This document shows, one piece after another, positions 1 through 35,190 of a DNA stretch of 64,000 bases. Under the pieces are notes generated by a model. The model saw only the letters and a list, made by a program, of their open reading frames with translations. It was not told where the DNA came from and did not search any database. The stretch is from Escherichia coli. GTDB taxonomy: Bacteria > Pseudomonadota > Gammaproteobacteria > Enterobacterales > Enterobacteriaceae. Every line of letters starts with the position of its first letter. Within the stretch, counting starts at the first letter, position 1. Made by a program: the position numbers and the translations under genes. Location of the stretch: NCBI RefSeq assembly GCF_022846255.1, contig NZ_AP025682.1; one strand, given 5' to 3'.

Positions 1-1341
1 TTCGTTAATTGCCGCTCGCTGACGAATCTCCGAAAGAAGATCATCCACCTGTGTTGCCACTGGCCGCACTTCGATAATCGGGTCGAGTAAGCCTGTTGGA
101 CGCACCACCTGATCCACCACATCGCCACCGGATTTTTCCAGCTCGTAATTACCCGGCGTCGCCGAAACATAGATGGTTTGCGGCGCTAATGCTTCGAACT
201 CTTCAAATTTCAGCGGACGGTTATCCAGCGCTGATGGCAGGCGGAAGCCGTACTCCACCAGTGTCTCTTTACGCGCCCGGTCACCGCGATACATGCCGCC
301 AATTTGTGGAATGGTGACGTGAGATTCATCGACCACCAGCAGCCCATCAGCAGGCAGGTAATCAAACAGCGTCGGCGGTGGCTCACCCGGTCCACGACCG
401 GAGAGGAAGCGCGAGTAGTTCTCAATCCCCGAACAGTAGCCTAGCTCGTTCATCATCTCCAGATCAAACTGGGTACGCTGGGTCAGCCGCTGCTCTTCCA
501 GCAGTTTGTTGTTTTCCAATAGCACTTTACGTCTGGCGGCCAGCTCTTCTTTGATCTCCTCCATCGCCTGGACGATGCGCTCGCGTGGCGTGACGTAGTG
601 CGTTTTCGGGTAGATGGTAAAACGTGGAATAGTGGAAACAATCTGCCCGGTCAGCGGGTCAAATAACGACAATCGTTCCACTTCCTCGTCAAACAGCTCC
701 ACGCGAAGTGCAATGTCATCCGATTCTGCCGGGAAGATATCAATCACCTCGCCACGAACACGGAAAGTACCACGCTGGAAGGCTTGATCATTACGAGCAT
801 ATTGCAGCTCCGCCAGTCGGCGCAGGATCGCGCGCTGATCGATAATCATACCGACCGTGAGATGGAGCATCATCTTGAGATATAAATCAGGATCGCCCAG
901 ACCATAAATCGCGGAAACAGACGCCACCACAACCACATCACGCCGCTCCAGCATCGCTTTGGTGGCGGACAAACGCATCTGTTCGATATGTTCGTTTACC
1001 GAGGCATCTTTCTCAATGAAGGTGTCGGAACTCGGTACATAGGCCTCCGGCTGATAGTAGTCGTAGTAGGAGACGAAATATTCCACCGCGTTTTCCGGGA
1101 AGAATTCTTTCATTTCGCCATACAGCTGGGCCGCCAGCGTTTTGTTGGGCGCAAGTACCATGGTTGGGCGCTGAAGGTCAGCAATGACATTGGCAATGGT
1201 GAAGGTTTTCCCGGAGCCAGTCACGCCAAGTAACGTCTGGTGCGCCAGGCCATCTTCCAGCCCCTCTTCGAGACGTCGAATCGCCTCCGGCTGATCGCCA
1301 GAAGGTTTAAAAGCGGAATTCAGTTTGAACGGTTTACTCAT
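1..1341 (-). CDS. uvrB: UvrB excinuclease ABC subunit B, N-terminal part (3' end lies beyond window start)
   Basis: Reverse translation from ATG at 1341 gives [28 protein letters not shown]...[10 protein letters not shown] (Walker A); reading frame runs off the window edge at [12 protein letters not shown]. Confidence 0.9.
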
Positions 1342-1417
1342 GAGTCGCTACCTGAAGGAGTTGGGCGGGCAGGTATGTAATTTTACTCGTCGTACTTAAT
1401 TATGCCAACAAATTATA

Positions 1418-1433
1418 CTGGATAAAAAAACAG
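1418..1433. promoter_or_regulatory. LexA (SOS) box, CTG-N10-CAG, in uvrB promoter region
   Basis: Sequence ctggataaaaaaacag about 80 bp upstream of the uvrB start; matches the remembered uvrB SOS box. Confidence 0.7.
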
Positions 1434-1737
1434 TTCATCACCATAATATTTCTGTTACAGCGTAAACTCCGCTGTCAATCATGAGCAAAATTTACTCTGC
1501 GGCGAGATAAAACTCCGGCCTTACCGGGTTATCCCCAAAGCAACGGCTTTTTTAACATTTGTCAAGATGATTGATGACAGTTTTATGGCAAGAGATGCCT
1601 GTTCAGTGACTGCCATTGCAATTATCTAACCTGTTAAAAAATAAAAGATATTTCTTTGAGCCGTCTTTAACGCCAATTCGCGTGCAAGCCGCGTATTCTC
1701 TCGCTTGCCTCGTGTTTTCTAACTCTAATACACATGG

Positions 1738-1760
1738 TTATCCACAGGAATAGTGGATAA
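1738..1760. promoter_or_regulatory. DnaA-box pair (TTATCCACA and inverted GTGGATAA) in uvrB upstream region
   Basis: ttatccacaggaatagtggataa: consensus DnaA box plus an inverted copy 6 bp away. Confidence 0.6.
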
Positions 1761-1919
1761 CTGTCTGCAGCCCCTATCCCCCGCCGCCTGGGCAATTCCC
1801 ACATTCACCGCATGATGCGGAGGTAAAATTTTTTTCGTGATTTTTTTAGAATTTAATTGGTTAAATTGCAGTCAATCGGAGACGCGATCTCGCTCACAAT
1901 TTAACCAAGCACAGGATGA

Positions 1920-2603
1920 CTACATTAAGGCAAGATTGATGTACTTTCCGGTTGCCGCATTTTCTGGATTTTCTGCAAGCCAGGGAATTTCGCCCAGCAG
2001 CGGCGCGGGAATCATGCGGGTGAGCGTGGTCATATATTCAGCGTGACGTTTTCCCGGAGGCGTGACATCGTTCGCCACCCACCCCGCCAGAGTCAGTCCG
2101 GCGTGTAGTATTGCCTGCGCAGTCAACATCGCGTGATTAATACAGCCGAGTTTCACGCCCACAACCAGTATCACTGGCAGTTGTTCCTGTGTTACCCAAT
2201 CCGCAAAAGTGAAAGTGTCAGAAAGCGGCGTAAACCAGCCGCCAGCACCTTCCACTAACACCCAGTCAGCCTGTTGTTCAAGCGCGCGTAATCCGGCGCT
2301 CATTACCGATGATTCTATCGGCCTGCCCTCTTGCGCGCTGATGATGTGCGGCGAGGTGGGTTCTGCGAAGGTGTAAGGATTTACCGTTGCGTAATCCAGC
2401 TGCAGGCTACTGTTGCGCTGTAACGCCAGCGCGTCACTATTACGTAAGCCTTTCAGGGTCTTTTCGCTGCCAGAGGCGACCGGTTTGTAACCTGCCGTCC
2501 GGTAGCCTGCTGCCTTTGCGGCTTGTAAAAGCGCGCAGCTGGCGACAGTTTTCCCCACTTCGGTATCCGTTCCGGTGACAAAATAACATTTACTCACGAG
2601 CAA
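1920..2603 (-). CDS. bioD: Dethiobiotin synthetase
   Basis: 227 aa ORF; P-loop-like GTDTEVGKT; last gene of bioBFCD gene order. Exact start uncertain (alternative GTG a few codons in). Confidence 0.9.
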
Positions 2604-29150: not shown

Positions 29151-29220
29151 GTCTGTTCCAGTGTTGCCATACTTATCTTAGTGAATGCAATACTTCCAAT
29201 CTATATCTTCCGTCAGAATG

Positions 29221-29238
29221 TGTAAACGGGGTTTTACA
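29221..29238. promoter_or_regulatory. TyrR box (TGTAAA-N6-TTTACA) at aroG promoter
   Basis: tgtaaacggggttttaca, perfect consensus half-sites, about 70 bp upstream of aroG start. Confidence 0.75.
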
Positions 29239-29465
29239 CTATGAACGGATTAATCCTGGAATTAGCAAGAAAAACGCCAGATTGTCGCGAAAAACGAGAT
29301 CTCTCCTACAATTTCTAACTGTAACTCCTTTGTTTGTTAATTATTTCAAGATTCTCTGCTGCGTTTCATAAGCTGGCTGAAATCTTAAACCAATGCCTGA
29401 TATTCACCTGCAAATGCACTGTTGGAAGAGGTTATCCGACATAACGACCATAACAGGAGCATCCT

Positions 29466-32975: not shown

Positions 32976-33051
32976 TGGTGGGTCGTGCAGGATTCGAACC
33001 TGCGACCAATTGATTAAAAGTCAACTGCTCTACCAACTGAGCTAACGACCC
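32976..33051 (-). tRNA. lysQ: tRNA-Lys (anticodon UUU)
   Basis: 76 nt, reverse complement is GGGTCGTTAGCTCAGTTGGTAGAGCAGTTGACTTTTAATCAATTGGTCGCAGGTTCGAATCCTGCACGACCCACCA. Confidence 0.93.
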
Positions 33052-33084
33052 CTTGCGGGATTATGCTGCTTTAATCATTCAGGA

Positions 33085-33160
33085 TGGTGGGTCGTGCAGG
33101 ATTCGAACCTGCGACCAATTGATTAAAAGTCAACTGCTCTACCAACTGAGCTAACGACCC
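33085..33160 (-). tRNA. lysZ: tRNA-Lys (anticodon UUU)
   Basis: Identical 76 nt tRNA-Lys copy. Confidence 0.93.
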
Positions 33161-33208
33161 ATACGGGTGTTACCTGAAAGATTTCTACTCGGAACCAATG
33201 TTTAAAAT

Positions 33209-33284
33209 TGGTGGGTCGTGCAGGATTCGAACCTGCGACCAATTGATTAAAAGTCAACTGCTCTACCAACTGAGCTAACGACCC
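33209..33284 (-). tRNA. lysY: tRNA-Lys (anticodon UUU)
   Basis: Identical 76 nt tRNA-Lys copy. Confidence 0.93.
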
Positions 33285-33287
33285 GAG

Positions 33288-33363
33288 TGGTGGGTGATGA
33301 CGGGATCGAACCGCCGACCCCCTCCTTGTAAGGGAGGTGCTCTCCCAGCTGAGCTAATCACCC
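33288..33363 (-). tRNA. valZ: tRNA-Val (anticodon UAC)
   Basis: 76 nt, reverse complement GGGTGATTAGCTCAGCTGGGAGAGCACCTCCCTTACAAGGAGGGGGTCGGCGGTTCGATCCCGTCATCACCCACCA. Confidence 0.93.
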
Positions 33364-33414
33364 GATACTGCGCTGGATACTACAAACTACTTCCACCGAA
33401 CCCACCGTAATCAG

Positions 33415-33490
33415 TGGTGGGTCGTGCAGGATTCGAACCTGCGACCAATTGATTAAAAGTCAACTGCTCTACCAACTGAGCTAACGACCC
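33415..33490 (-). tRNA. lysW: tRNA-Lys (anticodon UUU)
   Basis: Identical 76 nt tRNA-Lys copy. Confidence 0.93.
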
Positions 33491-33492
33491 GG

Positions 33493-33568
33493 TGGTGGGT
33501 GATGACGGGATCGAACCGCCGACCCCCTCCTTGTAAGGGAGGTGCTCTCCCAGCTGAGCTAATCACCC
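33493..33568 (-). tRNA. valT: tRNA-Val (anticodon UAC)
   Basis: Identical 76 nt tRNA-Val copy. Confidence 0.93.
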
Positions 33569-33603
33569 GATACTACGCTGGATACTACAACTAACTATGT
33601 TAG

Positions 33604-33679
33604 TGGTGGGTCGTGCAGGATTCGAACCTGCGACCAATTGATTAAAAGTCAACTGCTCTACCAACTGAGCTAACGACCC
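33604..33679 (-). tRNA. lysT: tRNA-Lys (anticodon UUU)
   Basis: Identical 76 nt tRNA-Lys copy; promoter-proximal gene of the cluster. Confidence 0.93.
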
Positions 33680-33843: not shown

Positions 33844-34635
33844 TTACATCGCGTTCAGACGTTTTTGCGCCTGTTTAGCGCCATCAGTACCAGGGTATTT
33901 ACTGATAACCTGCTGGTATACGGCTTTCGCTTTTGCGGTGTCACCTTTGTCCTGCATGATGACGCCGACTTTAAACATCGCATCTGCAGCCTTCGGTGAC
34001 TTCGGATAGTTTTTCACTACCGAAGCAAAATAATACGCCGCATCATCTTTTTTACCCTTGTTGTAGTTTAACTGACCCAGCCAATAATTGGCGTTTGGCA
34101 GGTAAGTTGAATCAGGGTAATTTTTGATGAAATTCTGAAATGCCACCATTGCGTCATCCTGGCGGGATTTATCCTGCACCAGCGCAATAGCTGCATTGTA
34201 ATCCGTGTTTGCATCACCGCTTTTCACCGGCGCGCCAGCATTCGCAGTACCAGCATCAGCTGTCGGCGTCGTTGATGCCGCCACACCGCTTTGATCGCCG
34301 CTGGTTGATTGCGCCGCTGCACCACCGCTGCTGAGGCTGTCGATCTGCAACAGGATCTGCTTTTGCCGCTCCACGACCTGATTCAGTTGATACTGATTTT
34401 CCTGAATCTGACCACGCAGGGAATCAATATCGGATTGATTATCAGAGAGTTGTTGCTGGAGTTGGGTTAAAAGCTGGCTGTGAGCATTAGAAATACGCTC
34501 AAGTTGAGTGACGCGGTCTTCGACCGAGCCTGAGCCGACACTACTGATTGGTGCCTGAGCAAAAGCGGCCCAGGGGGCCGCTATACCAACCAGTAACGAC
34601 AGACTCAATAGTTGATGTCTGAAGTTACTGCTCAT
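33844..34635 (-). CDS. cpoB: Cell-division coordinator CpoB (YbgF), coiled-coil plus TPR
   Basis: 263 aa; signal peptide, Gln-rich coiled coil, C-terminal TPR; last gene of tol-pal cluster. Confidence 0.92.
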   Translation of the reverse strand: MSSNFRHQLLSLSLLVGIAAPWAAFAQAPISSVGSGSVEDRVTQLERISNAHSQLLTQLQQQLSDNQSDIDSLRGQIQENQYQLNQVVERQKQILLQIDSLSSGGAAAQSTSGDQSGVAASTTPTADAGTANAGAPVKSGDANTDYNAAIALVQDKSRQDDAMVAFQNFIKNYPDSTYLPNANYWLGQLNYNKGKKDDAAYYFASVVKNYPKSPKAADAMFKVGVIMQDKGDTAKAKAVYQQVISKYPGTDGAKQAQKRLNAM

Positions 34636-34644
34636 GCAATTCTC

Positions 34645-35190
<546 letters not shown>

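Follow-up and report, generated by a model that had tools for sequence, protein, structure and literature searches.

The SOS operator of uvrB and the DnaA-recharging site DARS1 in the bioD–uvrB spacer of Escherichia coli

The main finding of this study is that the spacer between bioD and uvrB in Escherichia coli very probably holds two separate and characterised elements, the SOS operator of uvrB (1416-1435) and DARS1 (1726-1760, plus a flank of ~42 bp), both of which are already known and well characterised at this locus in E. coli. Our analysis of the window—the whole 64,000-nt stretch of E. coli DNA, to which all coordinates refer unless otherwise stated—establishes the identity, geometry, position and deep conservation of the two elements; binding of DnaA and LexA, release of ADP, and repression are functions that published work leads us to expect of them. 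In addition, we describe a conserved arrangement of DnaA boxes ~200 bp from the DARS1 core, which may be new and is the sole lead arising from this work that we consider worth following.

The bioD–uvrB spacer

The spacer is bounded by two genes.

1..1341, minus strand: 5' part of the uvrB coding sequence (RefSeq name), with ATG at 1341..1339 and a translation beginning MSKPFKLN; runs off the window start
1920..2603, minus strand: bioD (dethiobiotin synthase), the upstream neighbour, from the open reading frame list and RefSeq annotation

With both flanking genes on the minus strand, the spacer comprises the 578 bp from 1342 to 1919. The uvrB gene of the window aligns base for base with K-12 uvrB (start 813,526), and the spacer aligns without gaps to 812,948-813,525 of K-12 MG1655 (K-12 coordinate = 814,867 minus window coordinate), with 16 substitutions. 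Eleven of these 16 differences sit in the 113 bp adjoining bioD, and none falls in the three DnaA boxes of DARS1, in the 42-bp flank or in the LexA box. A 661-nt query spanning both motifs has a match in 5424 of 5426 complete E. coli genomes, where the flanks are annotated in RefSeq as uvrB and bioD, and the whole spacer shows 95-99% identity in 4968 of the E. coli genomes.

Several other features of the region were recorded. A permissive Rfam search of 1200-2100 gave no RNA family, and a search of the whole window returned ordinary E. coli features only; the window has a cluster of seven tRNA genes at 32976-33679 (five Lys-UUU and two Val-UAC), the cpoB/ybgF RNA thermometer at 34606-34744 and three tandem naRNA4 (REP-type) repeats at 51811-52071. 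Within the spacer, a perfect 12-nt inverted repeat (TTGGTTAAATTG / CAATTTAACCAA, 1857-1908, arms 28 nt apart) begins 12 nt past the bioD stop; among the aligned species it is kept in E. albertii only, and no U-run follows it on the bioD strand.

The LexA operator and the proximal uvrB promoters

The uvrB-proximal part of the spacer contains the SOS operator and two promoters.

1416..1435, no strand assigned: LexA (SOS) operator of uvrB, 'LexA-box1', TACTGGATAAAAAAACAGTT, with CTG-N10-CAG at 1418-1433
1380..1408, minus strand: uvrB promoter P1, -35 TTGGCA (1408..1403), 17-nt spacer, -10 TAAAAT (1385..1380); 10/12 matches in the promoter scan
1412..1417, minus strand: probable -10 hexamer of uvrB promoter P2, a perfect TATAAT overlapping the LexA box end, read from the uvrB-sense sequence

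The original prediction placed a LexA box of the form CTG-N10-CAG at 1418-1433, about 80 bp upstream of uvrB. It is there, 77-92 nt upstream of the uvrB ATG, with nine of the ten bases between its CTG and CAG (GATAAAAAAA) being A or T. On the opposite strand it reads AACTGTTTTTTTATCCAGTA, with every letter the same as in the published uvrB SOS box that PMC6015884 quotes from Fernandez de Henestrosa et al., and there is no difference between the box in the window and the one catalogued among the operators of the LexA regulon (CTGT-N8-ACAG class, Gammaproteobacteria). Like the operators of recA, sulA, uvrA and other genes of that regulon, it overlaps a promoter. It overlaps the TATAAT at 1417..1412, which is probably the -10 hexamer of P2, and its end is 8 nt short of the P1 -35 hexamer. 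Both P1 hexamers are kept in the 15 aligned Enterobacterales, and the end of a construct named '+33' in PMC6015884 suggests that the +1 of P1 is near 1374. In the literature, LexA-box1 lies between the -35 and -10 of uvrBp2, and the TATAAT overlap together with a P1 adjoining the LexA box agrees with the published layout of LexA-box1 and P2/P1. Published work reports a tight LexA footprint at LexA-box1, derepression by a TG>GC mutation and control of P1-2; weaker boxes, 'LexA-box2-4', which lack the CAG half, have been proposed as well (PMC6015884). A LexA dimer on 1416-1435 would cover the P2 spacer and -10 hexamer, would abut the -35 hexamer of P1, and would thereby be expected to repress uvrB until RecA-stimulated cleavage of LexA. 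In the uvrB layout attributed to Sancar and co-workers in 1982, P1 reportedly starts 31 nt downstream.

The DARS1 core

Further from uvrB lie the three DnaA boxes of the DARS1 core, read as 9-mers close to the consensus TTWTNCACA.

1752..1760, minus strand: DARS1 DnaA box I, TTATCCACT, one mismatch (position 9), head-to-head with box II
1738..1746, plus strand: DARS1 DnaA box II, TTATCCACA, full consensus, 5 bp from box I
1726..1734, plus strand: DARS1 DnaA box III, TAATACACA, one mismatch, 3 bp from box II and in the same orientation
1684..1725, no strand assigned: DARS1 flanking ('regulatory') region, ~42 bp after box III, its exact limits being presumptive
1684..1784, no strand assigned: approximate extent of the published 101-bp minimal DARS1, presumably 24 + 35 + 42 bp; by published accounts also contains uvrB P3

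The layout of the core is therefore 9-5-9-3-9, with boxes I and II head-to-head and boxes II and III head-to-tail. A near-palindromic pair of DnaA boxes had been predicted at 1738-1760, with 6 bp between the boxes and about 320 bp from the LexA box. The pair is real, at that position and in that orientation, but its gap is 5 bp when both boxes are read as 9-mers (the second can also be read as the 8-mer GTGGATAA at 1753-1760, the 9-mer reading being 1752-1760), it lies 305 bp beyond the LexA box, and box III was missed, the cluster being a three-box core. This arrangement corresponds to what has been described: the three boxes in uvrBp3 constitute DARS1 (PMC6015884), a DARS core consists of three DnaA boxes with box I oppositely oriented (PMC6868365, PMC5742627), and DARS1 is placed in the uvrB promoter region with a full-consensus box II and a 5-bp spacer between boxes I and II. 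As far as it is presented in PMC6015884, PMC6868365 and PMC5742627, which relay Fujimitsu et al. 2009, DARS1 of E. coli K-12 (upstream of uvrB, 17.5 min) is the same element as the one in the window, sharing its locus, three boxes, orientation, spacing, full-consensus box II and flank. The core maps to K-12 813,107-813,141, and the single SNP between the two (1767, K-12 G > C) is 7 nt upstream of box I, within the presumed 101 bp and outside the boxes. A DNase I footprint of DnaA has been reported at these boxes. A published DnaA ChIP-seq table lists DARS1 with 16-fold enrichment and a double box, cTAATACACAtggTTATCCACAg, that is identical to 1725-1747 of the window, but the peak centre stated there lies 200 bp away from the core.

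We give next to no credence to the reading that the two motifs are functionless chance matches in AT-rich intergenic DNA. It is true that single-motif counts are within chance for 64 kb, with 0.34 occurrences expected for TTATCCACA alone and 0.28 for TACTG-N10-CAGT. However, for a head-to-head pair with a 5-bp gap and no more than one mismatch per box the expectation is 0.035 per 64 kb, and one was observed; the 43-nt DARS1 core is 100% identical in 5423 of the 5426 complete E. coli genomes, it is conserved at the same locus across gammaproteobacterial orders, and the motifs match experimentally characterised sites exactly. Conservation and published binding data together refute this reading. 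DnaA boxes with no more than one mismatch also number 7 in the 578-bp spacer, compared with ~1 per 600 bp elsewhere in the window. The sole other close pair of DnaA boxes in the window is at 29219-29240 (TGTGTAAAC-GGGG-TTTTACACT, one mismatch each); it is tail-to-tail, the opposite of the orientation in a DARS core.

Comparison with other DnaA-binding sites highlights similarities and differences. We fetched and scanned DARS2 of K-12 (rppH/ygdT-mutH spacer, 64 min), whose core, TTATTCACC-5-TGTGGATAG-3-TGTGAAGAA, has the same layout as the one in the window and, according to the literature, the same mechanism of ADP release. The differences are that the core boxes of DARS2 are all imperfect and of low affinity, whereas boxes I and II of DARS1 are high-affinity, and that DARS2 needs IHF and Fis sites over ~455 bp, whereas DARS1 works alone in vitro. 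In vivo, DARS2 is the dominant site and DARS1 the minor one. Boxes III and II, with their 3-bp spacer, are also similar to the head-to-tail 'double DnaA boxes' of the DnaA-repressed promoters dnaA, mioC and nrdA, an arrangement preferred for DnaA binding in vivo. Those operators, however, are without the inverted box I at 5 bp that defines a DARS and drives ADP release.

The palindrome as a DNA site

Boxes I and II are embedded in a perfect inverted repeat, GTTATCCAC (1737-1745) / GTGGATAAC (1753-1761), which could alternatively be read as an RNA hairpin acting, for example, as a terminator of bio operon read-through or as an attenuator of P3 transcripts. Our terminator scan flags 1737-1761 as a 9-bp stem with a 7-nt loop, and the uvrB-sense RNA folds at -16.5 kcal/mol. 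On the other side, the z-score of the fold is only -1.78 and 9 of 200 shuffled sequences fold at least as well; G-C pairs make up only four of the nine in the stem, which is followed by CATGTGTATT instead of a U-run. The pattern of variation among related loci also counts against a hairpin: there are no compensatory changes in 40 loci, pairs break uncompensated in 4-12 of them, changes in box I (T>C at position 1 or 4) leave box II as it was and thus break the pair, and conservation tracks the DnaA box consensus, including in box III, which is outside the stem. We therefore rejected an intrinsic terminator at 1737-1761 on fold statistics, the lack of a U-run and the lack of covariation, and consider the hairpin reading in either form very improbable.

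Conservation across Gammaproteobacteria

The prediction that the sites would be conserved in related genomes held for both elements. The comparative sample consisted of the uvrB loci of 80 gammaproteobacterial species plus the window, 81 sequences altogether. The exact three-box architecture is present upstream of uvrB in 41 of the 81 (~40 of the 80 species), while a control of 203 kb of uvrB coding sequence contained no head-to-head pair with a 5-bp gap. The core is carried by 19 of 21 Enterobacterales (no more than one mismatch per box), and by Pasteurellaceae, Aeromonas, Aliivibrio, Shewanellaceae, Colwelliaceae, Rheinheimera and Pseudoalteromonas. The 9-5-9-3-9 spacing holds in the 40 related loci; 39 of them have a matching box II, and the only position of box III that is free to vary is the N of TTWTNCACA. 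Two of the Enterobacterales deviate: in Arsenophonus nasoniae (L020) the LexA box and boxes II and III remain but box I has decayed to TTATCCCCC (two mismatches), and in the insect-symbiont Pantoea of Nezara viridula (L015) the LexA box and the DARS1 core are both gone.

Conservation extends beyond the boxes. In the 15-species Enterobacterales alignment, the core and ~70 nt downstream of it form the longest conserved block of the spacer, which matches the published 42-bp stimulatory flank, the stretch past the last box that the literature reports to be needed for full ADP release in vitro. Within this flank, which is unchanged from K-12 and is the most conserved non-box block, AGAAAA, CGAGAG and CGCGG are invariant in the same alignment.

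The distribution of the LexA box is different. Of the 21 Enterobacterales sequences, 20 have CTG-N10-CAG at a distance of 51-143 nt upstream of the uvrB ATG; within 300 nt upstream of uvrB in the gammaproteobacterial loci from outside that order, it is absent bar two poor distant matches. Pasteurellaceae, Aeromonas, Aliivibrio, Shewanella and Alteromonadales have kept a DARS1-type core and have no LexA box near uvrB (300 nt; L021-L080). Furthermore, uvrB and the DARS1-like core are separated in 12 loci, from Alteromonadales and one metagenome-assembled genome, by a MatE-family transporter gene of ~455 aa; this gene is on the same strand as uvrB, and the core is ~330-570 bp upstream of it.

L027, L029, L030, L031, L034, L037, L041, L048, L049, L053, L055 and L065, about 570-2000: loci with the interposed MatE-family gene

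Outside Enterobacterales, no convincing LexA box was found upstream of either uvrB or the interposed gene. As judged from these sequences, then, the DARS1 core is the older and more widespread of the two elements at uvrB in Gammaproteobacteria, and the LexA box is an Enterobacterales feature.

The P3 promoter and the operator reading

The original prediction associated the distal promoter of uvrB with DnaA, and the literature agrees: uvrBp3 completely overlaps DARS1 and contains DnaA boxes 5-7 (PMC6015884), DnaA footprints on the P3 boxes have been reported, and P3-lacZ activity increases 5.9-fold when the consensus box carries a TG>CA change (PMC6015884). The hexamers of P3 are another matter. 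A consensus promoter scan of the uvrB strand found no promoter-like pair within 1650-1800, P1 being the sole uvrB-strand match, and, the P3 hexamers being unrecognisable in this way, the overlap of the boxes with a promoter is taken here from the literature. Hand-read candidates, GAGAAT (1700..1695) and TATTAG (1730..1725), are weak and not conserved.

These data raise the question of whether the DnaA boxes are primarily a transcriptional operator, in which case repression of P3 would tie uvrB expression to the replication cycle and DnaA reactivation would be incidental. Besides the P3 footprints and the effect of the TG>CA change, this reading is favoured by reports that dnaA(A345S) raises uvrB transcription ~3-fold and that uvrB is listed among DnaA-repressed genes. 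Nevertheless, we consider it unlikely, for several reasons. First, P3 alone on a plasmid provides only ~20% of the activity of the promoter cluster (PMC6015884), and little transcription is seen at DARS1 according to the literature. Second, the combination of 5-bp head-to-head and 3-bp head-to-tail spacing is common to DARS2, which is located at an unrelated gene, and the DARS1-type geometry is kept where the core is 1.7-1.9 kb from uvrB, behind the MatE-family gene. Third, what is conserved in the flank is the non-promoter-like CGAGAG and CGCGG rather than the -10-like GAGAAT. Since the core is older and more widespread than the SOS box at uvrB, its primary role is arguably not regulation of uvrB. 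An operator role at P3 and a DARS role are not exclusive.

Between P3 and P2 there is a terminator-like hairpin on the minus strand (1515-1527; CCGGTAAGGCCGG followed by AGTTTTATCT, uvrB sense), the GTTTTAT tail of which is kept in Enterobacteriaceae in the 15-species alignment. Such a hairpin could stop P3 transcripts short of uvrB.

Distal DnaA boxes at a conserved distance from the core

Two more DnaA boxes with the orientation of boxes II and III lie ~200 bp from the core, in the direction of uvrB.

1529..1557, plus strand: distal DnaA boxes, TTATCCCCA (1529-1537) and TTTTTAACA (1549-1557)

The box at 1549-1557 is 189 bp from box II (18.0 helical turns) and that at 1529-1537 is 209 bp from it (19.9 turns). 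We measured offsets in 40 loci from 16 clades anchored on box I, with a background of 2.2% of 10-nt windows. At offset 201-206, a DnaA box oriented like boxes II and III occurs in 6 of the 16 clades with no more than one mismatch, and in 11 of the 16 when two mismatches are allowed. This box is present in Enterobacteriaceae, Pasteurellaceae, Aeromonas, Shewanellaceae, Pseudoalteromonas and one metagenome-assembled genome, and is a perfect consensus in Pasteurellaceae and Pseudoalteromonas. As for the second distal box, TGGGGATAA (the uvrB sense of TTATCCCCA) is found at offset 222-225 in 17 Enterobacterales loci, and in 13 of the 15 aligned Enterobacterales. The offset from the core is fixed, but the downstream ATG is anywhere from 315 to 476 nt away, which indicates that the distal boxes travel with the core and not with the gene. 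The stretch 1529-1565 is a second conserved block of the spacer and includes TTGACAAATGTTAAAA (1565..1550), a near-palindrome (TTGACA-AA-TGTTAA) that contains TTTTTAACA.

On this basis we put forward, tentatively, that DARS1 is larger than the published 101 bp, being a bipartite element in which distal DnaA boxes, placed at a fixed and helically phased distance, are coupled to the core. The centre given for the DARS1 peak in the ChIP-seq table, 813,331, corresponds to 1536 in the window and so falls on the distal boxes, at 200 bp from the DARS1 core; the DARS2 peak, by comparison, is within ~30 bp of the DARS2 core. This coordinate could be genuine or could be a misprint for 813,131. In addition, 'DnaA-box2-4' are listed between P2 and P3 in E. 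coli (PMC6015884), and in the DARS1 and uvrB literature that we searched we found no statement on their conservation or spacing. Inspection by eye of the sequence between the core and the distal boxes gave no convincing match to the IHF consensus.

Discussion

DARS1 and the uvrB operator are established elements. From published work, the following mechanism would be expected to operate at the core. ADP-DnaA would first occupy the consensus box II and then bring in further protomers, head-to-head on box I and head-to-tail on box III; contact between the AAA+ domains of the head-to-head pair would cause the protomers on boxes I and II to release ADP; and apo-DnaA would leave the DNA and rebind ATP, thus yielding more initiation-competent ATP-DnaA. 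As a secondary effect, DnaA on DARS1 might occlude the weak distal promoter P3. The literature reports that ADP release from boxes I and II depends on Gln208, that deletion of DARS1 raises initiation mass or delays initiation, that extra copies of DARS1 lower initiation mass, and that transcription through DARS1 impairs its function; competition among LexA, RNA polymerase and DnaA at DARS1 has been proposed (PMC6015884). We also observed that two complete E. coli assemblies have an extra, plasmid-borne copy of the uvrB upstream or DARS1 core sequence.

This bears on the last part of the original prediction, according to which damage and replication initiation both provide inputs on uvrB. The two inputs exist, in the form of the SOS box and a DnaA-associated P3, but DARS1 appears to be mainly an output to replication initiation. 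The best-established role of DARS1 is the release of ADP from ADP-DnaA, which makes it not mainly an input on uvrB, and the preservation of the core geometry in lineages without a LexA box at uvrB, some of them with a MatE-family gene in between, supports the output reading.

The distal boxes are of interest because reviews describe the control of DARS1 in vivo as undetermined, with no regulator of DARS1 known. If functional, these boxes might use looping to supply the core with DnaA or to retain it there, or might tune DARS1 activity in vivo. They provide a concrete and testable handle on its control in the cell. More generally, a single spacer of 580 bp combines the SOS operator of a nucleotide-excision-repair gene with one of only two known chromosomal DnaA-recharging sites, and our comparative result separates the SOS box and the DARS1 core in evolutionary terms.
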